Assembly: GCA_903936565.1 (NCBI GenBank)
Contig: CAIZVZ010000004.1
Coordinates: 1 to 62,017 of the forward strand
Length of the DNA stretch: 62,017 nucleotides
Direction of reading: 5' to 3'
Source of the DNA: an uncultured bacterium
GTDB taxonomy: Bacteria; Patescibacteriota; Minisyncoccia; Phycocordibacterales; CAIZLB01
A program made the translations under genes and the position numbers. Below the pieces are notes generated by a model. The model saw only the letters and a list, made by a program, of their open reading frames with translations, did no database searches and was not told the origin of the DNA. Each line of letters opens with the position of its first letter. Within the stretch, counting starts at the first letter, position 1. Positions 34,119 to 45,542 of this stretch are shown here, piece by piece.

Positions 34119-37100
34119 TTATTTTCCCCCAAAGAAATTCCACAATTTTATAATTGGTGATAGCTTTTTTGGTTCACCAGTTCCCGTCCTTGTACCCATG
34201 TTACTCGCAGGGGTGGAGGTCGTGACTGTGTATCTATTGGCGTTAGACTTACCATTAGTGTCAATAACACCAGCGTCACCCGTCACACCCGTAACATCCT
34301 CAACGACCTTATTAACTACTCTCACCTCCAAAATTAGTGTTCCAACTTTTAGCGTATACAAGCCAAGCGCCCTAGGTGTCATTACATTTAACTTAATAAT
34401 ACCATCCTTATTTTTAACAAATTTAACATATTCATTGTTGAAAGTGGCAGTGACCTCCTTATCTTTATTTTTTAAATTTACATATATATAAGATTCTGGC
34501 TCAACACTAATTATCTGATATGCATTTCCCTTTTTATCAATAGATAGCTTTGTCTTTTTCTCTAGTCCATCAACTGATATAAACATCAGTGTTGTTGGCT
34601 GAGGCACCTTTTCTTTTGCCAATTCATGTAAGGTTGGCGTCTCAATTGGACTTTCCTTCATCATATATAGATCATATCCATTTATTATTCCCGCCTTATT
34701 TAATTCTTTATTAATTGAAGGTACTAATTTAGAGATATTGACCAGTGATTTTGGTAATGAATTATCAAACAATACATCAACTTTATTGAATAATTTCAAT
34801 TTTGGTAATGAACTGAACCCTGTAACAGGTTGTAGATCTAGCATATTAACAAGAGGATTTACAAGTTTTGAAACGCCAAAGTTTTTTCCAATATCCCCAA
34901 GACCTACCTTTGGAAGATTTGATAGATTAAGCTTGTTTAAGCTGTTATTCATATTTAAGAATTTTGTATCAACACTACCCCCACTATTGCCTCGATTTGT
35001 ATTATTAGGATTATTGTTACCAGAAACAGCAGGAGGAATAATTATAGGACGATTTACAACAACAGGTGGAGAGATTATACTTCCGCTTGAGTGTTCACTG
35101 CTTGGGCACGTTCTGTTGTTACCCTCTCCCACTACAGATGTTGCACTGTAATTATTTGAATTTGTAATGTTAATTATTCCAGAATCTCCTCCATTGCCAC
35201 AATCTGTGGAGTTCCCACCATTTGCGGTTACAATTGTGTCAGTAACAGTACCGTCTGAATTATAGATGATAACTACTCCTCCATTTCCGCCATTCCCTGT
35301 TCCGTTTGCTCCATTTGCAAATATTCTTCCAGTTGTGGATGTTGCAACAGTAGTTGTTCCTCCAGATTGGCCGTTCTGTGATCCACTTACAACCACATCA
35401 CTTGTTGTTGCATTTTGTATTGTAAGAGTGGCACCATTTGATGTTGTTGTTCCTGTGATGGTGATGTTTTTAAGAGTTATATTATGTCCCCCTCCTTCAA
35501 ATCCTCCGATGGAAAAACCAACTCCTTCTGCTATTGATGAGGAAGCTGTTGTTTGTGCATTACCAAAGAGTGATGTGTCAACTGTTGCTGTACAAGTTTC
35601 TGATGTTGAAGACGCTAGGTAGTAGTATGGACGGGTCACTTCATCCAACAGATCAGATCCGCAAGCTGTCCAGACTGGGGTGGCGTTGTCATAATTAAAT
35701 ACAATAGACCTCTCACTCAAATTACCTTTCACATCCACTGCTTTAACATAAAGAGTATGTTCTCCCCCACCTGGTCTTGGAATATCTCTGCCGCCCAGAG
35801 CGCAATTTAGAGGCTGATAATTTTCAGCATCTATTTTATATTCACAACTTGATGTTCCCGTACCCCAATCAATTGAAGGCGCCCATTTTATAGTGCTCGT
35901 TCCTACAAGTGGTGAAGAAATGGAAATCTGCGGAATAACAGGTCCTCCAGCAATGTTTGCTCCGAAGATGAAAAATCCATTACTGAATGCTTTGAAAATA
36001 TTTGTAGCCAAATTATAAATGGCATTTGAAATATTAACGACAACACCCCTAGCAATTATAATCCAATCAGAGTGACCGCCGTCTGTGGTAAAGTTACGGG
36101 TTGTAGTTGCATCAGCATTATACTCTCTTGTTGTAGAGCCATTTATTGTTCCTGTATTTTGTGAAATATCATCGTGAAAAGTTACATTTCCATTAACCAT
36201 CCCATTGTTATAACTGTAATCGTAAAAATCAAAAACTCCACCTACCGCAACAGAAGACGTACTGTCACGGTTAAAGCTACTGTCATAGAAGTTTACCGCC
36301 CAACCTGATGCAACAGAGATTGTGCCACCATTGTTTGAACTACTATCGTGAAAATTTAGAATTCCGCCTGAAGCAACATTTATTCTTCCAGTATTAACAC
36401 CACTACCATAAAAATCAATTGTACCACCAGAGAGAATGGAAATAGCTCCGCTGTTATAGCTAGTATCGTAAAACTTCATTGTACTACTAGATGCAACTGT
36501 GGTTGTACCATTGCTGTAACTACTATCATGGAATACAAGGTGGGTTATTGAAATATTATCAGCCAAACCTTTGACAGAACCGGTAACTGTTCCATAAGAC
36601 ATAACACCAGAGAGGCTTATAGTTCCACTCGTTGCATAAGCAAATCTAGCAGCTCCATTTATAATGCCCTTGTTGTAACTTGAATCATTGAAGTCTGCCA
36701 CAAACCCTGTAGTAATATCCATTACCCCATTAAAAATACTGTTATTATTGAATTCAACATTGCCGGCTGTTACATTAAAGTAATTAGAAACACTACTACT
36801 TCCATAGACATTCAAAATCCCTCCTGTTTGATAAAGTGCTCCAGTTCCAAGACTTGAAGAATTACTTAAATTTAGTGAACCAGCATTAAGTGTTGTTCTA
36901 CCAGAATATGTATTAACCCCATTAAGTGAAAGTCCACCGGCGCCACCCTTAGTTAAACCATATGATCCGCCAATTACACCTCCCGCTGTCAAAGTCTTAT
37001 TTACTCCATTAACCGTTACCGTTGTTGTTGCACTAAGTGTAATTGCACCTGTTCCTAAATTAAGATTATTTGTTCCGCCAAAAGTAAAGTTTCCATTCCA

Positions 37101-38303
37101 ATTTTGTAAATTATTTGTAGAAAGCGCAACTGCCCCGCCAGATGTATTATCTATTAATCCCCCGTTTATTATAAGAGTACTTGTACCAACAGCTCCTGCA
37201 TTATTAATATTCAAGATTCCTCCGTTCAAAACAATTCCTCCAGAAATACTATTTACACCAGCCAAAGTCAAAGTACCAGAACTCACTGTGGTTGTACCAG
37301 ACATTGTAATTGTAGAACTTGTCGCTTCTGTAATTGTACCTGTGTAACCAGAATTTATTTTAAGATTTTTAACATTTACATTTGTATCAATAACGGCCGA
37401 GCTTGTGGCACCAGTATCAAATATAGCGGTATCATCCACACCGGGTACACCAACACCATCTGATCCGCCAGTTGTAGCTGACCAATTAGCACTATTACCC
37501 CAGCTTCCCCCATTGGTCCCAACCCAATAATAATTATTTGATGTATAACTTAAACTTACATTATTCAGTATTGGAGTGTTAATCCCATCGGAAGATATGA
37601 GAGTTGTTTTGTAGTAAAGAGAACCACTCCACAAAAGGCCCGCAAGATTTATACTGTTTGTTCCAGCGGACAAAGTATTAAAATCATTTAAGACACCTGA
37701 GGAACTATACCAAGAATTTCCATCTTGGCTAAACTGAATTTGAACACTTGTATTTGGTGGAAGAGATGAAATTGTATATCCAAAACTATTGATAGAAGCT
37801 ACGCCATCGGCGGGTAAAAAATTAGTTGATGATAATGTTCCACTAGATGAATATGTAAAAAATGTTCCTTCAAAAGAAGTGAAGGCTACACTCACGGAGT
37901 TTAAAACAGGAGTATCTGTTCCATCTGTAACAAATATTACTCTATAGAAAAAGTAGGCTTTTTTCCATCCCATATTAGACAGATCTATTGTATTTGTTCC
38001 AACAGAAAGATTATCCCATGAATCCACCACGCCAGTAGAGCTGTACCACGATACATTATCATAGCTAAATTGCATTTTTAAACTAGTACCCTCGGGAATT
38101 GCCGTGGCATTATACGTCACACTGTTTATCATTGATGTTCCCTCAACCGGCAGAAAGTTGGTGGATGTAATCATACCTCCGTCCATATATGAGCCCGTAG
38201 AAAAAGTATGAAGGGGTACCAGAGAGACAGAAAAAATAGCAACTATTGCAGATATTATAAAAATATATCTAGCTATTTTTTTTGTAAATAAGTATCCAAT
38301 CAT
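34119..38303 (-). CDS. Giant surface protein (1394 aa) with a duplicated N-terminal domain, autotransporter-associated beta-strand (PATR-like) repeats and a beta-helix region
   Basis: N-terminal anchor. Two ~140-aa copies of TSTNFLP..G..INS..Y....P..TS...QFS.D..SWYSS.GV......LS.GTN.I.L. PATR-like runs (SGTLTLAGVNSISGGIVLNGGILNINNAG..., GGLSLNGVNTYSGRTTLNAGSLNLSN). GNGGNGG/GNGGDSG segments resemble the partial ORF at 1..483. Confidence 0.65.
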   Translation of the reverse strand: MIGYLFTKKIARYIFIISAIVAIFSVSLVPLHTFSTGSYMDGGMITSTNFLPVEGTSMINSVTYNATAIPEGTSLKMQFSYDNVSWYSSTGVVDSWDNLSVGTNTIDLSNMGWKKAYFFYRVIFVTDGTDTPVLNSVSVAFTSFEGTFFTYSSSGTLSSTNFLPADGVASINSFGYTISSLPPNTSVQIQFSQDGNSWYSSSGVLNDFNTLSAGTNSINLAGLLWSGSLYYKTTLISSDGINTPILNNVSLSYTSNNYYWVGTNGGSWGNSANWSATTGGSDGVGVPGVDDTAIFDTGATSSAVIDTNVNVKNLKINSGYTGTITEATSSTITMSGTTTVSSGTLTLAGVNSISGGIVLNGGILNINNAGAVGTSTLIINGGLIDNTSGGAVALSTNNLQNWNGNFTFGGTNNLNLGTGAITLSATTTVTVNGVNKTLTAGGVIGGSYGLTKGGAGGLSLNGVNTYSGRTTLNAGSLNLSNSSSLGTGALYQTGGILNVYGSSSVSNYFNVTAGNVEFNNNSIFNGVMDITTGFVADFNDSSYNKGIINGAARFAYATSGTISLSGVMSYGTVTGSVKGLADNISITHLVFHDSSYSNGTTTVASSSTMKFYDTSYNSGAISILSGGTIDFYGSGVNTGRINVASGGILNFHDSSSNNGGTISVASGWAVNFYDSSFNRDSTSSVAVGGVFDFYDYSYNNGMVNGNVTFHDDISQNTGTINGSTTREYNADATTTRNFTTDGGHSDWIIIARGVVVNISNAIYNLATNIFKAFSNGFFIFGANIAGGPVIPQISISSPLVGTSTIKWAPSIDWGTGTSSCEYKIDAENYQPLNCALGGRDIPRPGGGEHTLYVKAVDVKGNLSERSIVFNYDNATPVWTACGSDLLDEVTRPYYYLASSTSETCTATVDTSLFGNAQTTASSSIAEGVGFSIGGFEGGGHNITLKNITITGTTTSNGATLTIQNATTSDVVVSGSQNGQSGGTTTVATSTTGRIFANGANGTGNGGNGGVVIIYNSDGTVTDTIVTANGGNSTDCGNGGDSGIINITNSNNYSATSVVGEGNNRTCPSSEHSSGSIISPPVVVNRPIIIPPAVSGNNNPNNTNRGNSGGSVDTKFLNMNNSLNKLNLSNLPKVGLGDIGKNFGVSKLVNPLVNMLDLQPVTGFSSLPKLKLFNKVDVLFDNSLPKSLVNISKLVPSINKELNKAGIINGYDLYMMKESPIETPTLHELAKEKVPQPTTLMFISVDGLEKKTKLSIDKKGNAYQIISVEPESYIYVNLKNKDKEVTATFNNEYVKFVKNKDGIIKLNVMTPRALGLYTLKVGTLILEVRVVNKVVEDVTGVTGDAGVIDTNGKSNANRYTVTTSTPASNMGTRTGTGEPKKLSPIIKLWNFFGGK

Positions 38304-38404: not shown

Positions 38405-39652
38405 TTAATGGAAAGGTGATATATTTACCCTCTTTAATCCAACCTTAGTAAACCCCTCATTGATATTAATAATTTCCTTAAACTTTGGATCTAAATACCC
38501 TAAAATCATCTTTTTGCGAAGCTTATAGGTATTAAAATGACCCATCATACCTAGATATGAATTTACACAAGCTACCGCCCTCCTATTATTCTTACCAACA
38601 GTCTCAACGGTCCCAACAACCTCTACCTCACCTTTCTTCAAAACACCATTAAATTCTTGAATCTTTTTATAAAAACTAGTCTTTGTTTTGTTTCTAATAT
38701 AAAGACGATACGGTTTTATAAAAGCTCCCAAAAACAATACTCCGTTGTTGATATGTTGAAGATATATCTTTTTTGGATGCAAATCAAGCAAAAGTTTGTC
38801 TTTTAAATATTGTCTTATAGTAGGAATTATGGATTTTAAATACTCTTTATCTTTATGAACAATTACCATATCATCTACATATCGCCCGTAATACTTGCAG
38901 CCAAGCTCATATTTTACAAAATGATCAAAATCATCCAGATAGACGTTCCCAAACAACTGGGAAGTTAGGTTTCCGATAGGTAAACCCGTGTCTAATTTTG
39001 CACCAAATAGACTTTTAGATTTTGGTAGTCCCTGCCAGTTTTCTTTGCTTCCCTTCACGACACAATGTTTTGTTGGGTCATGGAATATTGTTTGGCTAAT
39101 AAGATTCAGCAGCCAAACAGTATCAAACACATAACCTGCCTTAACCTTAACTTCACCATTTACATCTTTTGACTTATTCATTTTTTCTTCAATCTTTTTA
39201 TATAAAATATTTTTATCAATAGACATAAAATACCCCTTGATATCTAATTTTAATACATAACAATCTGATTTGTAATTTTGTGAACAAGAACGAATAAAAT
39301 GATCTAGTCTCTTAATTCCGCACAACGTCCCCTTTCCTTTTCTACAGCTATAACTATCATCAATAAAGGAAGAATCAAATATTGGATTTATGTAATTAAA
39401 AATTAAATGATGAATAATTCTATCTCTAAAGTCAGCGGCAAAAATTTCTCTTTTTAGTGGTTTGAAAGATATGAAGCAGGAGCTTTTGCTAATTACGTAT
39501 GACCCGCTGGTAATTTCTCTACCAAGTTCCAATAATCTTTTTTCATATTCTATCTCAAATTTTAACTGACTCGATGTTCCACGTTTGTTTTTCCTAGCGA
39601 AATAATATGCATCAAACAAATCATGTAAAATCTTTCTGTTGTTAGCCTGCAT
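38405..39652 (-). CDS. DGR-type reverse transcriptase
   Basis: RT motifs are DIKGYFMSID, LPIGNLTSQLFGNVYL (the I/LGxxxSQ form characteristic of DGR RTs), YGRYVDDMVIV (YxDD) and LHPKKIYL. It lies 122 nt downstream of the TR. Confidence 0.9.
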   Translation of the reverse strand: MQANNRKILHDLFDAYYFARKNKRGTSSQLKFEIEYEKRLLELGREITSGSYVISKSSCFISFKPLKREIFAADFRDRIIHHLIFNYINPIFDSSFIDDSYSCRKGKGTLCGIKRLDHFIRSCSQNYKSDCYVLKLDIKGYFMSIDKNILYKKIEEKMNKSKDVNGEVKVKAGYVFDTVWLLNLISQTIFHDPTKHCVVKGSKENWQGLPKSKSLFGAKLDTGLPIGNLTSQLFGNVYLDDFDHFVKYELGCKYYGRYVDDMVIVHKDKEYLKSIIPTIRQYLKDKLLLDLHPKKIYLQHINNGVLFLGAFIKPYRLYIRNKTKTSFYKKIQEFNGVLKKGEVEVVGTVETVGKNNRRAVACVNSYLGMMGHFNTYKLRKKMILGYLDPKFKEIININEGFTKVGLKRVNISPFH

Positions 39653-39774
39653 TAACAGAATTATAACAAAGATGACTCAATGAACAAGCGGCGCTAACAA
39701 TGTGATGATGATGAAATTATTATAATCCCAAATGAAATACCCCAAGTATTTCTTGAGGTATTTCACTATCCAGC

Positions 39775-39962
39775 CCTTGAGGCAACGCACAGAAAAGCCG
39801 TAGGCCTTGGTGTTCAAGTTCCGGTTGACACCAGCGTTGCCAGAGTTCAGGTTGTGGTTCCAGGCTGTAGTACCACTTGCAACAGATGACCAAAAGTTCG
39901 TGTTCGTCCCCAGATTGTTGAAAGAGCCATCGGTATTGCGGTAGCCTGAAAGGAAACCCCTA
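39775..39962 (-). repeat. DGR template repeat (TR)
   Basis: Identical to 41806-41993 at 180 of 188 positions (constant offset 2031). In the target frame it reads ...FNNLGTNTNFWSS...AWNHNLNSGNAGVNRNLNTKAYGFSVRCLK, which is rich in AAC codons. Confidence 0.9.
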
Positions 39963-40203
39963 ACGCAAGAATAATCATTGATTTCCTTCTGTTAGCCTAA
40001 CGGAAAACAAAAGTTTATATAATTTCCATAAATTATCATATATTCCTCAAAACTAAATACATTGATATGCAAAAGACTTGAGAAGATTATTGGGCTGATT
40101 AAGGCACGCCTATCTTTGCCGTAACAAAAGATAGTTCTGGCCGATATTCCGATATTTGCAAAAAACAACATAGAAAAAACATATCTACGTTTCTATCTTA
40201 TTT

Positions 40204-40545
40204 CTAACCACTTGTTTTTTGCCAAGCGTATAACTGCAAAGAAACTTCTTCAATTCTTTCATTAAGAGATATAAATTTATTCAAACCAATTTGTTTAAGA
40301 TCCTTAATTAATCTAAGATATAAACGCACCACCTCTAAATGATCTATCGCTGATTCCAGTAATTTATATTTTGACAAACTATTGTTTGCTCTATAAATAT
40401 CTGCAATCATCCATGATATCTCCCTCTTCAGGTCTTCTCCAATGGTATACTTGTATTCACGTTTAAAGTTTTTAGTAAAAATAAATACATCCAACAGAAA
40501 ATCATAACTTGCCTTATATACAGGAAGATTACTGTGGATAGTCAT
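40204..40545 (-). CDS. avd: Avd-like four-helix-bundle protein (DGR accessory variability determinant)
   Basis: 113 aa. LPVYKASYDFLLDVFIFTKNFKREYKYTIGEDLKREISWMIADIYRAN fits the Avd / 23S-rRNA-IVS four-helix-bundle family pattern. It sits between the target and the TR. Confidence 0.8.
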   Translation of the reverse strand: MTIHSNLPVYKASYDFLLDVFIFTKNFKREYKYTIGEDLKREISWMIADIYRANNSLSKYKLLESAIDHLEVVRLYLRLIKDLKQIGLNKFISLNERIEEVSLQLYAWQKTSG

Positions 40546-41596
40546 GGTCTATTTGTTGATTATAATTATTTTTCTTTTTAGAGTCTAGAATATTTTGTAC
40601 CTTACGATCAAAATCAGAAATATAATTTTTATCTTGTTCAACCTGATATTTTTCATATTCCCCCAACACTAAGGTCTCAGCCACAGCATGACTAACCTTA
40701 CCTAAATCACTCAAAATGTCACGGTCGTTTAATTTTAAAAACTCACCAAGCTTACTCTCCCAATCCAACATAAACATAGCCTTTTTGTGCTTAGCCTGTG
40801 ATTCAGCAAAAATCAAATATTGCTCCACTATATTATTTAGACCAGCAAGTTCTTCTTCGTTTAAATAATTTTTAGCTACCAACATATCCGTTTTGCGTAT
40901 GACACCCTGTGGACCATTTTTCCAATTGGTGAGGCCTAAATTTAGCTTACTACTACCCACACGACTAGTAATTATTTCAGCAGCCGTTTGACCTGAAATA
41001 GCAAAGTGTAACTTATTTTGTACGGTGGCAAAAAAATGTTGAGCTTCAATACTATTTTTATCATAATCTACACTACACTGTGCATAAATATCTGTGATTT
41101 TTTGATAAAATCTACGCTCACTGCTGCGAATATCCGCAACACGGGCTAACTGCTCTTCAAAATAATCTTGACCAAAGGTGTAGTTTGGAGTTTTTAACCT
41201 TTCATCGTCCATTGTAAATCCCTTAATAATATATTCTTTTAGTCGTTCTGTCGCCCAGATACGAAATTGGGTAGCATTAGAAGAATTAACACGATATCCC
41301 ACGGAAATAATTGCATCTAAATTATAATGTTTCGTCTTGTATTTTTTACCATCACTGGCAGTTACCGAGAATTCCTCGGTAACTGATTTTTCTTGTAATT
41401 CATTGCTCTCAAAGATATTTTTAAGGTGTAAAGAGACATTATCGGTTGAACAATTAAAAAGTGACGCAATAAGCTTTTGTGTAAGCCAAATATTTTCATT
41501 GTGTAAAAATATCTCTACTTTTACCTTGCCATTTGGTGTAGTATAGAGTAAAAATTCTGTGAAGCTATTCTGTTTTATAATTTGATTATTTTTCAT
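40529..41596 (-). CDS. RhuM-family protein
   Basis: FLLYTTPNGKVKVEIFLHNENIWLTQKLIASLF...HYNLDAIISVGYRVNSSNATQFRIWATERLKEYIIKGFTMDDERLK matches the RhuM family pattern as I recall it. Its 3' end overlaps the avd start by 17 nt. Confidence 0.7.
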   Translation of the reverse strand: MKNNQIIKQNSFTEFLLYTTPNGKVKVEIFLHNENIWLTQKLIASLFNCSTDNVSLHLKNIFESNELQEKSVTEEFSVTASDGKKYKTKHYNLDAIISVGYRVNSSNATQFRIWATERLKEYIIKGFTMDDERLKTPNYTFGQDYFEEQLARVADIRSSERRFYQKITDIYAQCSVDYDKNSIEAQHFFATVQNKLHFAISGQTAAEIITSRVGSSKLNLGLTNWKNGPQGVIRKTDMLVAKNYLNEEELAGLNNIVEQYLIFAESQAKHKKAMFMLDWESKLGEFLKLNDRDILSDLGKVSHAVAETLVLGEYEKYQVEQDKNYISDFDRKVQNILDSKKKNNYNQQIDHDYPQ

Positions 41597-41681
41597 GATA
41601 TTTTGGCCGTTCTATTGCTTTCATACTTTCCTTACCCCCATTTTGAACTATCAACTTTTGGTTTACAGTTCATTAATTTTG

Positions 41682-41758
41682 GGCGATTCAGCAGGCGATT
41701 CAGCAGAATTGCCTGCTGGGCGATTTTACAAAATCGAGCCTACTAGGCGCTCCGCGCC
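41682..41758 (-). other. Structured non-coding 3' flank of the DGR target gene
   Basis: Tandem GGCGATTCAG at 41682-41691 and 41694-41703. An 8-bp stem CAGCAGGC/GCCTGCTG (41689-41696 with 41711-41718). Palindrome CGATTTT-ac-AAAATCG (41721-41736). GC hairpin GGCGC-tcc-GCGCC (41746-41758). Confidence 0.6.
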
Positions 41759-41762
41759 CGAA

Positions 41763-41795
41763 GCAAATAGGGCAAATCCCGCAAATGGGGCAAAT
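41763..41795 (-). repeat. Four phased GCAAAT (coding-strand ATTTGC) hexamers at 9-bp spacing
   Basis: GCAAAT at 41763, 41772, 41781 and 41790, separated by agg, ccc and ggg. They end 5 nt from the target stop codon (41801-41803). Confidence 0.85.
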
Positions 41796-41800
41796 GAGCA

Positions 41801-44299
41801 TTAATCCTTGAGGCAACGCACAGAAAAGCCGTAGGCCTTGGTGCTCAAGTTCCGGTTGACACCAGCGTTGCCAGAGTACAGGTAGTGGTACCAGGCTGTC
41901 GTACCACTTGCAACAGATGACCAAAAGTGCGTGTCCGTCCCCAGATTGTAGAAAGAGCCATCGGTATTGCGGTAGCCTGAAAGGAAACCCCTATATGAGC
42001 CGGACATGTTTCTCATGGTTGTTCCTTCATTTGTTCCTCTCCAGCCAGTGGTAGTTGTATCATATGGGAAATCAGTGACGCAAGATCCTGATGTACAGGT
42101 GGTGCGCTCTAGTGTTGTGAATTCATCATGGGTGGGAACATGCCATCCTGTTGGACAGATTCCCTTGGCACCCGGAGTTGTTCCTCCACACATTACCTGA
42201 GTCCATTGATATAATCCTCCGCCACTTATACAGTTATTTGTATCGTTAGCATAGCAATATTTTTGAATGGATGCGGCGGTTGCACAACTTGTTCCTTGAG
42301 TTGTGGCACCTGTTACCATTGTTCCAACGTTTAGGTTCTGTTGCATCCAACATTGAGAACCAATTAGAACAGTTGTGTAGGTTTTTCCATCTCTTGTATC
42401 CAGTAGCGCTGAACCACACGCCCAAGATGATGAGGCAGCAAGAGTAATTTGCCCTGTTGCTGTATCTATCACTACATTATTAGAAGATGCAATTCTACTT
42501 GTGGCGTGGAAGGTGTCAGTTATTGTTATTGGTGTTGGGTCAACAATGTAATCAATATCAACCGAGCCTGTGGTCTTTAGATCAAAAGTATTGGTGGAAT
42601 GATGGAGGTTCATGAGAAGAACCTTATACATCTTTTCAGCATTAATACTCCCGAAGGTGACAACTGGTTGTTCACTTGGGGTGCCGTCGTAGACGGGGTA
42701 TACATCTATTCTTGCAGACGTTACTGTTGATGATGTTCCCTGCACTCCAGCTCGTGTTGGACGAGCATAGATAGTATTATCATTCTTGTTTGTCAAGAAT
42801 TTTTCAAATGTTACCCTCACTGTGTGGCCATCTGCAATTGTTGCCCAAGTATTATCTTGATCTTTTACAAGATCATAGATGTCTCCTGTAATTTCTCCAT
42901 TCTCATCTAGTTCCAATGCTTTTGTTATGAAAATGATTTCAAATGTTTGTGTGGAGAGATGAGGGACTGTCCACTCTACATAATCAAGCTTTCCGTCACC
43001 ATCCAAATCATATGCATGGAATTGCATGTCTTGACCGTTATTATTTAACCACTTGATTTTAATCTTGTTTTCTTGTCCAACTTTGTATATTGGAGGGATG
43101 TTGGTGAAGGCAAGAACATTTTGTGTATGAGGTTGGCCGTCTGCTTCTCCGGCAGAGTCAGAAACCGTAACAATCTTTCCAGTGTCTGTTACAGCTTCAG
43201 CGAGAGTTGGTGCTGGGGTCTGGTATTCCACTATCACGTCCGTGGTTTTAGAGGTGGGTTTTGTGGTGGATATTTTGGTTGAGGTGGAAAGATTTGTGGA
43301 GGATGTAGCTGTGGTGTTAATGATGTTTGTTCCGCCATCACCTACTTGGATATCTCCACTGGTGGAAGTGGATAATGTTGATTCTGTGTTGGCAGACGAG
43401 GTTTCTGTTGTTGAAGTACCTGTTCCTGTTCCTACTCCACCATTTTCACTTGTTTTGCCTGCAGTATTTTGTGATGTTTCTGTTGTGGATCCTTGTTCGT
43501 TTGTTGTGTTGTCCGTTGTTGCAGGATCTGTTTGGGTTTGTGCAGTAGATTTTGTTTGTGCTTCAACTTCTGCTTGTGGCAATACATCCACTACTGTAAC
43601 TTCGGGTTGTGGTGGTGTTGGGAGCACCACCGTTTCTTCAACGGCTGTTGCAACAGAAGCCATGGAGCTACCTAATTTTGAAAAAGCCCTACTTACATAA
43701 GCAACAAACCGAGAGAAGAAGTTTCTTTGTGAATATACTTGTTGTAACTTTATATTTTTCTGTATCTTCAGTGACTCTGCCAAAGCAAGGGATTCTTTGG
43801 ATATTGCGTTTTGTCTTGATAATTCCTTGAGTTTTTGTCTGTCTGTTTTGGTTAATGTGGAAGCTGGTGATGTAGATAATAGGGATTGTGTAGAAGATGT
43901 GAAAGAAGATGTTGTTATTTTCTTATCCACCCCGACTCTAACAACGGGTTGTACCTTAACTTCTCCTGCTGACTTTGGTATTTCAATCAAGTGTTGCCCA
44001 GCGGAGATGGTAGAGGCGCTAATTAAGGTTGTCCATTTAATAGGTTGGCCTGGGACAGAGGGGGCCTGTGTAGCAACAGACCCCTTCACAACAGATACCT
44101 TACCTTTCTCCGCTTGATGACGAGTGGAAGATGAGGAGAGGTATGTGGTGGTTTTGATTAATGCTAAAACAATGAAGATGATTACGAATGATAAAATAAT
44201 CCCGAGAACAAATGCTACTTTTGGTTTTCTCAATAACCCATTTAACGATTCTTTTTTCTTTTGTTCATCTTGCTCAAAAACACTATTCATAATATTCAT
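41801..44299 (-). CDS. DGR target protein: membrane-anchored surface protein with a C-terminal FISUMP/C-type-lectin-fold variable domain
   Basis: N-terminal TM helix (VAFVLGIILSFVIIFIVLALI), a Ser/Thr-rich stalk and a DLDGDGKLDYVEW Ca-binding-like loop. The C-terminus (DGKTYTTVLIGSQCWMQQNL...CPTGWHVPTHDEFTTLE...GYRNTDGSF...GFSVRCLKD) fits the Fibrobacter-succinogenes-major-paralogous (TIGR02145-like) lectin fold. The VR covers the last 63 codons. Confidence 0.85.
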   Translation of the reverse strand: MNIMNSVFEQDEQKKKESLNGLLRKPKVAFVLGIILSFVIIFIVLALIKTTTYLSSSSTRHQAEKGKVSVVKGSVATQAPSVPGQPIKWTTLISASTISAGQHLIEIPKSAGEVKVQPVVRVGVDKKITTSSFTSSTQSLLSTSPASTLTKTDRQKLKELSRQNAISKESLALAESLKIQKNIKLQQVYSQRNFFSRFVAYVSRAFSKLGSSMASVATAVEETVVLPTPPQPEVTVVDVLPQAEVEAQTKSTAQTQTDPATTDNTTNEQGSTTETSQNTAGKTSENGGVGTGTGTSTTETSSANTESTLSTSTSGDIQVGDGGTNIINTTATSSTNLSTSTKISTTKPTSKTTDVIVEYQTPAPTLAEAVTDTGKIVTVSDSAGEADGQPHTQNVLAFTNIPPIYKVGQENKIKIKWLNNNGQDMQFHAYDLDGDGKLDYVEWTVPHLSTQTFEIIFITKALELDENGEITGDIYDLVKDQDNTWATIADGHTVRVTFEKFLTNKNDNTIYARPTRAGVQGTSSTVTSARIDVYPVYDGTPSEQPVVTFGSINAEKMYKVLLMNLHHSTNTFDLKTTGSVDIDYIVDPTPITITDTFHATSRIASSNNVVIDTATGQITLAASSSWACGSALLDTRDGKTYTTVLIGSQCWMQQNLNVGTMVTGATTQGTSCATAASIQKYCYANDTNNCISGGGLYQWTQVMCGGTTPGAKGICPTGWHVPTHDEFTTLERTTCTSGSCVTDFPYDTTTTGWRGTNEGTTMRNMSGSYRGFLSGYRNTDGSFYNLGTDTHFWSSVASGTTAWYHYLYSGNAGVNRNLSTKAYGFSVRCLKD
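41806..41993 (-). repeat. DGR variable repeat (VR)
   Basis: Copy of the TR with 8 mismatches, at 41844, 41878, 41884, 41890, 41900, 41929, 41935 and 41950. Seven of them correspond to a coding-strand A in the TR. Confidence 0.9.
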
Positions 44300-44358
44300 G
44301 ACATATATTTTAACATGAAAATATAATCTGCGGTATTAAATGTTAAAAAGTTATCCAC

Positions 44359-44401
44359 AAAAAAACATCCAATCTCCTTATATGAGAGTTGGATGCTTTT
44401 T
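44359..44401 (-). terminator. Intrinsic terminator downstream of tRNA-Thr
   Basis: On the minus strand: GCATCCAACTCTC-atataa-GGAGATTGGATG (one bulge) followed by TTTTTTTGTGG. It separates the tRNA from the DGR target start. Confidence 0.65.
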
Positions 44402-44407
44402 AACGAA

Positions 44408-44483
44408 TGGAGCCGCTTCCCAGATTCGAACTGGGGACCTACTGTTTACAAAACAGTTGCTCTACCAACTGAGCTAAAGCGGC
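44408..44483 (-). tRNA. tRNA-Thr (anticodon UGU), CCA encoded
   Basis: The reverse complement GCCGCTTTAGCTCAGTTGGTAGAGCAACTGTTTTGTAAACAGTAGGTCCCCAGTTCGAATCTGGGAAGCGGCTCCA folds as a cloverleaf. It has a 7-bp acceptor stem, D arm GCTC/GAGC, anticodon stem ACTGT/ACAGT with loop TT-TGT-AA, and T arm CCCAG-TTCGAAT-CTGGG. Confidence 0.9.
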
Positions 44484-44575
44484 AAATATTAAGCTTTCAA
44501 TTAACCTAATTTGTGGCTACAAGCAAGCTTTTGCCGTTAATTAAGTATCAACAATATAGCATACCGCCTAAATAA

Positions 44576-44959
44576 TTACAAATTATTTTTGTGGTCCTCA
44601 ATCTTCTTCAAGAAGAATGAAACTGACCCCCTATTTCTAGCCACTTGCTTTCCCCTTATCATATCCCCAAGCTTGGAAAACCTTTTTTCTAGCTTGTTTG
44701 CCAACCTTATAAAGAGTAACTCCAAAACCTTGGCGGTCTTATGAAAGAAATCAGCTAGAGACTCTCTTTTAATATGCACAACGTTGTGTCTAACTAAATG
44801 ATATCTCCTAAGTATATGCCAATCCCATTCAGGTTTACTGAATTTGATATGGCATTTTTTACCAGAGTTTTCTAACATCTTTGTAATCACCATGGCGAGC
44901 ATGATTAAAAGAGAAAGACCACAAATTGTATATAAGAAAAACATATGTTTATCTACCAA
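44576..44959 (-). CDS. Hypothetical small membrane protein
   Basis: One N-terminal TM helix (FFLYTICGLSLLIMLAMVI) and a basic C-terminal part. It overlaps the tsf stop by 11 nt, which suggests co-transcription. Confidence 0.4.
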   Translation of the reverse strand: MVDKHMFFLYTICGLSLLIMLAMVITKMLENSGKKCHIKFSKPEWDWHILRRYHLVRHNVVHIKRESLADFFHKTAKVLELLFIRLANKLEKRFSKLGDMIRGKQVARNRGSVSFFLKKIEDHKNNL

Positions 44960-45542
44960 CGTTGAAACGAGAGAATCTTGAAACCTCTATTCTCTCTCCA
45001 AATTTTTGCACAAAGCCATCAATCAACTGTCTTATTGTAAGATCTTGATTCTTAATGAATGGTTGATCTAGCAATACTCTTTCCTTGAAGTAAGCATCTA
45101 ATTTACCTTGCAGAATCTTCTCCTTAAGCTCTTCTGGCTTACCAACAACCTCTTCTGCAAAGATTTCCTTTGCCTTTGCTTTGTCTGCCTCAACAATTTC
45201 ATCCATTGTTCTAAACTCAGGATTTGTTGCAGATATTTGCATAGCAATATCATGTGCCAACTTAACAAACTCTTCATTCTTGGCAACAAAGTCTGTCTCA
45301 CAAGCAAGCTCAACCATTGAGCCAATAAGACCATTTGAGTGAATATAAGCAGACACGATTCCAGCACCAAGAGATCTGTCAGACTTCTTAGCTGAAATTT
45401 CGGCACCCTTCTTTCTTAGTAGTATCAAAGCCTTCTCCTTGTCTCCTCCGGCGTCTTCTAGGGCCTTACGGCATTGCATAACAGAGATTCCTGTCTCGTC
45501 TCTTAGTTCCTTAACTTGGTCAAGTGATATTTGTGTAGACAT
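44949..45542 (-). CDS. tsf: Elongation factor Ts (short form)
   Basis: UBA-like N-terminus VKELRDETGISVMQCRKALEDAGGDKEKALILLRKKG and the core block GSMVELACETDFVAKNEEF. It lies downstream of rpsB. Confidence 0.9.
   Translation of the reverse strand: MSTQISLDQVKELRDETGISVMQCRKALEDAGGDKEKALILLRKKGAEISAKKSDRSLGAGIVSAYIHSNGLIGSMVELACETDFVAKNEEFVKLAHDIAMQISATNPEFRTMDEIVEADKAKAKEIFAEEVVGKPEELKEKILQGKLDAYFKERVLLDQPFIKNQDLTIRQLIDGFVQKFGERIEVSRFSRFNVGR

Follow-up and report, generated by a model that had tools for sequence, protein, structure and literature searches.

Does the segment between positions 38,405 and 44,299 of contig CAIZVZ010000004.1 (62,017 nt from an uncultured bacterium, analysed at full length and here called 'the window') hold a genuine diversity-generating retroelement (DGR), that is, a cassette of a reverse transcriptase (RT), an avd gene, a template repeat (TR) and a target gene ending in a variable repeat (VR), and, if so, does this cassette belong to the chromosome of its host and does it still diversify its target? 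An original prediction, made from the letters alone, had described a complete DGR in a reduced genome resembling those of the candidate phyla radiation (CPR). Our analysis leads us to classify the region, with a probability of about 0.88, as a chromosomal and structurally intact DGR of the Patescibacteria/Legionella-type lineage, characterized by an avd-TR-RT core and a VR of the CLec2/DUF1566-FISUMP type. The cassette is real, yet it is an ordinary representative of a DGR family already known to be abundant in CPR bacteria. All DGR parts named in the prediction are found on the minus strand, exactly where it had placed them and within 5.9 kb (Table 1), and its statement that DGRs are common in CPR lineages agrees with the literature (Roux et al. 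2021; Wu et al. 2018).

Template and variable repeats

The largest repeat of the region is a direct repeat of 188 nt whose two copies, TR and VR, are 96% identical. On the coding strand they differ at eight positions, seven of which are adenines of the TR, each located in an AAC codon and each changing the encoded asparagine (N to Y, D, H, Y, Y, Y and S). Given 44 adenines among the 188 nt, the probability that at least seven of eight mismatches fall on A is 2.4e-4. The same adenine-specific pattern is seen in 15 related cassettes, with 9-24 TR/VR mismatches per cassette. The VR covers codons 770-831 of the 832-codon target gene and, read in the frame of the VR, the TR contains 10 AAC and two AAT codons, so that these 12 AAY codons permit in principle about 1e23 protein variants. 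Neither a further TR-like copy nor a second VR is present elsewhere in the 62-kb window, and two open reading frames (ORFs) at 39720-39893 and 41700-41924 were set aside as other-frame readings of the TR and the VR.

The VR ends in an adenine-free segment of 22 nt (CGGCTTTTCTGTGCGTTGCCTC) that is identical in the TR (39779-39800). This segment is similar in kind to an invariant 'initiation of mutagenic homing' (IMH) element and presumably serves in homing; a pair of IMH and IMH* sequences like that of Bordetella phage BPP-1 is not evident at the 3' ends of VR and TR.

Reverse transcriptase and Avd

The RT matches the Pfam family RVT_1 (E 3.9e-15) and exhibits the motifs IGNLTSQ (residues 226-232) and YVDD (residues 258-261). 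A motif of the form [IL]GxxTSQ occurs in five of six DGR reference RTs, while the reference RTs of group II introns and those fused to Cas1 have QGxxxSP. All ORFs of the cassette are full length, and both YVDD and the SQ of motif 4 are intact. Among solved structures, the best match is a 328-residue RT (8ub7; E 4e-33, compared with 2e-9 for a group II RT), which we take to be the Bordetella RT (bRT) because its length equals that of BPP-1 Brt and it has the same IGSLTSQ motif. The RT is furthermore 45.6% identical (E 1e-100) to an RT encoded on a Legionella pneumophila plasmid, which itself sits in a cassette with a DUF1566 target and a four-helix-bundle protein. Homologues number in the thousands at 55-85% identity, many of them named Paceibacterota or Patescibacteria, and the phages matched by the RT all bear DGRs (BPP-1, VHML, crAss-like phages, hankyphage and ANMV-1). 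In a crude neighbour-joining (NJ) tree with group II and Cas1-fused RTs as outgroups, the RT falls within a clade of CPR RTs with the Legionella RT as sister (177 of 200 bootstraps). A phylogenetic placement of the RT had been proposed as a check, and in this tree, in which retron RTs were not included, it groups with DGR RTs and not with group II or Cas1-fused RTs.

The gene predicted to be Avd-like is confirmed as such: its product exceeds the curated cutoff of Pfam bAvd (E 4.7e-13; 50 bits, cutoff 40) and matches the PHROG family 'Avd protein of DGR' (E 9e-17). The score for the NCBIfam model DivGenRetAVD (E 8.7e-12; 45 bits) lies below the cutoff of 80, and a sequence search against solved Avd structures returned chance matches only. 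The protein has an isoelectric point of 9.1.

These findings bear on the possibility that the locus is not a DGR at all, the repeat being an ordinary duplication of a 3' gene end and the RT stemming either from a group II intron or retron or from a defence system (DRT/Abi). Such an RT might account for the partial, sub-threshold matches to NCBIfam models for group II, Drt3a, Drt2 and retron RTs and for the partial DRT-type matches obtained with PADLOC. However, the NCBIfam matches are far below their cutoffs and are confined to the palm motifs, the RT exhibits SQ instead of SP and has the presumed bRT as its best structural match, the TR/VR mismatches are adenine-specific here and throughout the RT clade, avd is adjacent, and no intron or retron RNA is matched in Rfam. 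A non-DGR origin is thereby effectively refuted.

Target protein

The target protein starts with a hydrophobic anchor (residues 28-48), continues through a linker rich in Ser and Thr (40% S+T across residues 230-360) and ends in a FISUMP/Fib_succ_major domain (residues 632-832; PF09603, E 1.1e-26; TIGR02145, E 1.7e-34). The lectin fold attributed to the VR in the original prediction is supported by structural modelling. An AlphaFold2 model of the last 232 residues (601-832) reached a mean predicted local distance difference test score (pLDDT) of 91.4, and the top match in the PDB identified with Foldseek is the C-terminal DUF1566 domain of Legionella Lcl (8q4e; probability 0.99, TM-score 0.47), which its authors describe as C-type-lectin-like (PMC11162425). 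Weaker structural matches comprise C-type lectins from snake venom and human as well as viral FISUMP/DUF1566 proteins; a sequence search of the target protein against solved structures yielded chance matches only. VRs of the DUF1566/Fib_succ_major type have been classified as CLec2, target category d, with the Legionella DGR as exemplar (Wu et al. 2018, PMC5758913).

Host and genomic location

The window carries smc, dnaE, thrS, gyrB, pheST, prfA, rpsB, tsf and rpmE. Since these are housekeeping genes, we consider the cassette to be chromosomal. Named homologues of GyrB (67-75% identity) are without exception from Paceibacterota, Taylorbacteria, Parcubacteria, Minisyncoccia or Patescibacteria, named homologues of the RT and of the target protein exhibit the same CPR pattern, and contigs encoding identical proteins come from metagenomes of stratified lakes (BUCK21-1_SAMEA68729xx, ERZ273134xx). 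The CPR-like host of the original prediction is thus borne out, and the sequence comparisons support a Paceibacteria-like CPR bacterium of stratified freshwater lakes.

DGRs are common in phages, RhuM and Bro-N genes (see below) are often borne by phages or genomic islands, and an element resembling a miniature inverted-repeat transposable element (MITE) flanks the slot in which RhuM resides; one may thus ask whether the cassette is part of a prophage or another mobile element instead of the chromosome proper. This appears very improbable. The cassette is flanked on one side by rpsB, tsf and tRNA-Thr and on the other by the gene of a large surface protein, a glycosyltransferase gene and pheST; the gene of the large surface protein is syntenic in the relatives L025, L022, L026, L027 and L149 (labels of this kind denote the contigs of related cassettes); integrase and phage structural genes are absent from the vicinity; and the region exhibits no break in composition. 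Moreover, a search of viral contigs with the RT retrieved only distant DGR RTs of gut phages (26-36% identity). The reading as a chromosomal DGR is therefore retained.

The large surface protein itself (1394 residues; 34119-38303, minus strand) is repetitive, contains weak PATR repeats and is encoded directly downstream of the RT. Its gene holds a syntenic position also in L001, and in L005 it lies upstream of the target gene. It was considered as a DGR target and ruled out, having no TR-like sequence.

Layout of the cassette

Table 1. Features of the cassette and its surroundings (window positions unless a contig is given).
Feature	Position	Strand	Basis or remark
tRNA-Thr	44483..44408	-	upstream of cassette
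Terminator-like hairpin and U-run	44401..44359	-	RNA fold
Target gene, 832 aa	44299..41801	-	ORF; PF09603, TIGR02145
VR, 188 nt	41993..41806	-	repeat with TR; last 62 codons of target gene
Adenine-free 3' end of VR, 22 nt	41810..41831	-	read from sequence
Four tandem 9-nt repeats	41763..41796	-	repeat family analysis
GC hairpin	41746..41758	-	downstream of VR
Lineage-specific insertion carrying RhuM	40598..41745	-	comparison with L025
RhuM ORF, 355 aa	41596..40529	-	PF13310
avd, 113 aa	40545..40204	-	Pfam bAvd, PHROG
Structured 5' RNA domain	39967..40144	-	covariation, folds
TR, 188 nt, noncoding	39962..39775	-	repeat with VR
TR-RT spacer, 122 nt	39774..39653	-	contains post-TR stem-loop
Post-TR stem-loop, 13 bp	39732..39766	-	MFE folds
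RT, 415 aa	39652..38405	-	RVT_1; IGNLTSQ, YVDD
5' RNA domain in relatives	L025:7551-7728, L022:4594-4766, L005:9553-9712, L002:9553-9726, L141:3613-3665		

About 20 related cassettes, with RTs 49-85% identical to that of the window, have the order target-avd-TR-RT. The gene order, which had been predicted to be non-canonical on account of an extra RhuM gene, is hence better described as this common order into which RhuM was inserted as a passenger.

The terminator that had been proposed to follow the upstream tRNA-Thr gene is represented by a hairpin with a calculated dG of -21.6 kcal/mol (z -4.3; none of 200 shuffles as stable), followed by U7. A simple terminator scan did not report this hairpin, but direct RNA folding revealed it. 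The hairpin is consistent with the cassette being an independent transcription unit, separated from the genes upstream.

RNA structures around the template repeat

The gap between avd and the TR spans 162-319 nt in relatives and 0 nt in BPP-1; in the window it is 241 nt long. There it contains, directly 5' of the TR, an RNA domain of about 180 nt which consists of a P1/P2 hairpin domain and a long-range helix P6 that encloses the hairpins P3-P5. Across 14 sequences, 95.6% of the P1+P2 cells are paired, with compensatory changes in 10 of 13 pairs, a result reached by none of 500 shuffles; slid controls gave 42-52% pairing. Helix P6 (AATAATC/GATTATT), which ends 3-10 nt before the TR, is 97.6% paired and exhibits UA<->CG covariation in five sequences, while P3 has three covarying pairs. 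P4 and P5 are misaligned by MAFFT and were not counted in the covariation; they derive their support from independent minimum-free-energy (MFE) folds, 12 of 14 of which share the topology of the domain. Its thermodynamic stability is unremarkable (z -1.8; 8 of 200 shuffles fold as well), and the case for a conserved structure thus rests on covariation.

A covariance model of P1/P2 scores 83 bits in the window and 66-83 bits in every CPR relative, and it also matches two sequences outside the set from which it was built (L003, 49 bits; L040, 29 bits) and, weakly, the Legionella cassette (20 bits, E 0.02), there exactly between avd and TR. When the whole window was searched with Rfam at the gathering threshold, only tRNA was found; at a permissive threshold, positions 39500-40300 gave chance matches only (E >= 0.59), with neither an intron nor a retron RNA among them. 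An ORF of 59 codons in the avd-TR gap (39992-40171) has no Pfam match, overlaps the RNA domain and was treated as spurious.

In one relative (L033:6963-11177) the order is 5' RNA domain, TR, avd and RT, followed by a target gene in the opposite orientation; the RNA domain stays with the TR and not with avd. In another, whose RT is only 35% identical, the 29-bit match lies downstream of the RT (L040:1206-1269), which suggests a gene order RT-RNA-TR.

A second structure lies on the other side of the TR. It is a stem-loop of 13 bp that starts 9 nt after the TR, and stems of 12-16 bp with different sequences are found at the same place in MFE folds of L025, L022, L005, L002, L026 and L034. In its location it resembles the Avd-binding stem-loop of BPP-1 (preprint 10.1101/2023.10.23.563531), and a similar role may be considered by analogy. 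The length of the TR-RT spacer varies among relatives from -14 to 133 nt.

Elements downstream of the variable repeat

Directly after the stop codon of the target gene follow tandem 9-nt repeats (CATTTGCC C / CATTTGCG G / GATTTGCC C / TATTTGC) that flank the VR and not the TR. In 11 cassettes, the motif TT[TC]G[AC]C, which was picked after inspection, shows a 34-fold enrichment over the first 50 nt downstream of the VR, and none of the 11 TRs is followed by it. Tandem 8-9-nt repeats of the form yATTTGmC are likewise found after the VR in L025, L022, L005, L002, L028, L031, L034, L036 and L026. It may be that these repeats constitute a VR-specific recognition signal. A GC hairpin (GGCGC-GGA-GCGCC), 43 nt past the target stop codon, is shared with L025 (GGGCGC-GAA-GCGCCC) and occurs only in some relatives; the tandem repeats, in contrast, are the conserved VR-specific feature. 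The cis elements of the cassette, which the original prediction had called unusual, are typical of the whole RT clade.

RhuM and the slot between VR and avd

The ORF between target gene and avd matches PF13310 nearly end to end (E 2.9e-103; profile positions 1-249 of 252), as well as the PADLOC candidate PDC-S05 (E 1.3e-139), and its stop codon overlaps the start of avd by 17 nt. Anantharaman et al. (PMC3710099) proposed that RhuM acts as a toxin encoded within defence and restriction-modification loci, and genes sandwiched within DGRs have been described before (Wu et al. 2018, PMC5758913).

The comparison with relatives clarifies how the gene came to its position. The closest relative, L025 (RT 85% identical), has 96 nt in place of the lineage-specific insertion and lacks RhuM; L149 (RT 74% identical) has RhuM at the same place, split into ORFs of 198 and 117 residues, while avd and RT are intact; and L026/L027 harbour instead a Bro-N gene of 291 residues (PADLOC PDC-S13, E 4e-105) that overlaps avd likewise. 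In most other relatives the VR-avd gap measures 50-220 nt. Because of its absence in L025, its split state in L149, its replacement by Bro-N in L026/L027 and its matches to defence families, we regard RhuM as a passenger in a slot prone to insertions, as a gene that the DGR probably does not need, and as a candidate toxin or defence gene.

One may alternatively view RhuM as a new functional accessory of the DGR, for instance regulating Avd or being coupled with it. The gene is enclosed by the cassette and shares its strand, the 17 nt by which it overlaps avd suggest translational coupling, the arrangement is kept in L149 at 81% nucleotide identity, and in L026 the slot is taken by another gene, Bro-N, with an overlap of the same kind. 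Yet RhuM is missing from the closest relative and from most others, it is pseudogenised in L149 next to intact avd and RT genes, and its family is widespread, usually in restriction-modification and defence loci. The overlap, moreover, is explained by the RhuM ORF reading through into the old avd leader, the ancestral sequence of which forms its final codons. An accessory role is hence quite improbable, and RhuM as passenger is the reading that we adopt.

The cargo of the slot thus varies between relatives from intact RhuM to decayed RhuM, Bro-N or nothing (40598-41745; L149:400-1485; L026:354-1229), and the stop codon of each cargo gene overlaps the avd start. A relationship between RhuM and the Bro-N gene of L026 was considered; the two exhibit no significant similarity (E 0.24) and are treated as unrelated. 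The left end of the RhuM insertion is occupied by a 65-nt element with many short hairpins (41680-41744, minus strand), of which L149 has a second, inverted copy that separates the 5' RNA domain from the TR (L149:2061-2125). The element is similar to a MITE, or to the termini of a small mobile unit.

Is the cassette active?

That this DGR lineage diversifies in nature follows from two assemblies of one related cassette, L002 and L032, in which 26 of 5818 nt differ, 25 of them inside the VR (L002:8940-9128 against L032:3811-3999). This cassette is labelled Saccharibacteria. For the copy in the window, current diversification in its population is unproven. VR alleles were collected through look-ups of the exact protein, and scans of metagenomes and genomes with the RT did not return the strain (best identities 85% and 75%). 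The 90%-identity cluster of the target protein contains five members. Two are start-codon variants; two more, one of either length form, have a single substitution that does not lie in the VR; and in the fifth (P0004, contig L133) the differences comprise exactly six AAC-derived codons.

Several observations have to be set against our assignment. (i) In the crude NJ tree, the DGR RTs are monophyletic with respect to the outgroups in only 112 of 200 bootstraps, and no retron RT was among these outgroups. (ii) The eighth TR/VR mismatch is a synonymous T>G exchange (ACT>ACG) and thus lies at a non-adenine site. (iii) Only seven of the 44 TR adenines are substituted, compared with 9-24 in relatives. 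(iv) The exact 832-residue target protein is found on at least 14 contigs from about nine lake assemblies and, where DNA is available among these (L024, L134-L138), the VRs are all identical, so that a direct sign of ongoing diversification is lacking. (v) The VR of contig L133 (L133:2442-2629; ERZ27313532 k141_673394) equals the TR at seven of the eight mismatch sites, including the T/G site, and retains only the 3'-most VR-specific base; this may reflect conversion of VR by TR that proceeded without mutagenesis, or a MEGAHIT chimera assembled through the TR.

These observations raise the question of whether the cassette, although intact, is dormant or domesticated, with a VR fixed by selection and a DGR that fires rarely or never. 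The uniform VRs, the small cluster and the low load of substitutions speak for this reading, and the non-adenine mismatch suggests some drift since the last homing event. On the other hand, the full-length ORFs, the intact YVDD and motif-4 SQ and the conservation of the RNA structures flanking the TR all speak against dormancy, and a related cassette is visibly diversifying. Consensus assemblies also hide minor alleles, and a single lake study contributed most of the samples. Several contigs end no more than about 150 nt from the VR, as could happen if the VR is heterogeneous. We consider dormancy unlikely, and continue to regard the cassette as a structurally intact DGR of a lineage that diversifies its targets.

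A further contig (L139; ERZ27313541 k141_167474) aligns to window positions 41155-45329 with a target gene that is 100% identical throughout and 53 differences clustered at both ends (tsf/orf127 and RhuM). It suggests either a mosaic assembly or another strain that has diverged by about 5%.

Proposed mechanism and implications

The paradigms of Bordetella and Legionella suggest how the cassette would operate. A complex of RT and Avd would bind a transcript that runs from the structured 5' RNA domain across the TR to the post-TR stem-loop, and the RT would copy the TR into cDNA while misincorporating opposite template adenines. The cDNA would then replace the VR in the 3'-terminal part of the target gene, guided probably by the adenine-free homology of 22 nt at the 3' end together with the VR-specific flanks, that is, the tandem 9-nt repeats and the GC hairpin. 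The ligand-binding face of the surface protein, which is membrane-anchored and C-type-lectin-like, would thereby be recoded at up to 12 AAY codons. We infer transcription, cDNA synthesis and homing at this locus, as well as the roles of the cis elements, by analogy with these two systems.

It is tempting to speculate further that DGRs of the Patescibacteria/Legionella type use cis determinants which have so far not been described, namely the 5' RNA domain, the post-VR repeats and a VR-avd slot that acts as a recurrent landing site for anti-phage candidates. Taken together, these proposals are possible and are offered tentatively. The 5' RNA domain could be the main scaffold for RT and Avd where the TR-RT spacer comprises only 10-20 nt, the post-VR tandem repeats could replace the IMH/cruciform signal of the BPP-1 type, and cargo genes (RhuM/PDC-S05, Bro-N/PDC-S13) may become translationally fused to the avd leader. 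RNA domain, VR-flank repeats and cargo slot alike occur family-wide and may be undescribed. In the DGR papers that were searched we found no description of the 5' RNA domain or of the post-VR tandem repeats, and the only conservation analysis of DGR RNAs that we found (Handa et al., preprint 10.1101/2023.10.23.563531) reached no further than 40 nt 5' of the TR; the covarying domain reported here extends from 10 to 190 nt upstream and thus beyond that range. Likewise, the VR-specific tandem repeats suggest a target-recognition signal unlike that of the BPP-1 paradigm. For DGR specialists, these by-products of the comparison could matter more than the cassette itself.

The cassette nevertheless provides a clean reference: it has one target and many close relatives for comparison, its parts all fit into 5.9 kb, and repeated sampling in one lake dataset makes activity tests at the level of reads feasible. 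CPR cells are tiny and probably host-attached. One more well-resolved DGR supports the view that such cells diversify lectin-like surface adhesins.

Comparison with known systems

DGRs of CPR bacteria, their target class, their architectures and the occurrence of sandwiched genes are well documented (Wu et al. 2018; Roux et al. 2021), and against this background the cassette may be compared with four known systems. The first is the family of Patescibacteria DGRs. A DGR clade restricted to Patescibacteria and to aquatic biomes has been designated clade 2 (Roux et al. 2021, PMC8144416), and the cassette shares with it a CPR host, an aquatic biome and a cellular instead of viral location. Patescibacteria DGRs also have FISUMP targets, often fused to pilin or anchor domains. 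In a CPR set, 90% of the cassettes exhibit architecture B3, TR-(avd)-RT (Wu et al. 2018, PMC5758913), while the cassette in the window, with avd and TR on the same strand, corresponds to B1 of the same scheme; it furthermore differs from DGRs of the restricted clade in carrying a sandwiched RhuM gene.

Second, RhuM matches its family and PDC-S05 over its full length, but members of this family usually reside in restriction-modification and defence islands, whereas here the gene lies between a DGR target gene and avd.

Third, the DGR of Bordetella phage BPP-1 (mtd-avd-TR-brt) has the same set of components in the same order and the same adenine specificity of mismatches. It likewise exhibits a GC hairpin after the VR (GCGGGGCC-GAAA-GGCCCCGC) at the same relative place, its Avd-binding stem-loop follows the TR directly as does the stem-loop of the window, and its TR-RT spacer is of similar length (144 against 122 nt). 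The differences are considerable, however: the BPP-1 RT is only about 28% identical and shorter by 87 residues (328 against 415), the VR is of the Mtd-type CLec and comprises 134 instead of 188 nt, avd abuts the TR where the window has the gap with its covarying RNA domain, and tandem 8-9-nt repeats after the VR are present in the window but not in BPP-1.

The fourth system is the DGR of Legionella pneumophila, which is borne by a plasmid or an integrative and conjugative element (ICE). Its order target-avd-TR-RT is that of the window, its target likewise ends in a VR of the DUF1566/Fib_succ_major type, and its RT exhibits the same IGNLTSQ and YVDD motifs and is sister to the CPR clade. The similarity extends only marginally to the RNA, given the weak match to the 5' RNA model between avd and TR. 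Its target LdtA is a lipoprotein (Wu et al. 2018, PMC5758913), whereas the target in the window is a Ser/Thr-rich protein of 832 residues anchored at its N-terminus, and the Legionella cassette carries no RhuM cargo. A plasmid-borne element of a gammaproteobacterium and a chromosomal locus of a CPR bacterium thus exhibit the same gene order, the same type of VR and the same RT motifs.

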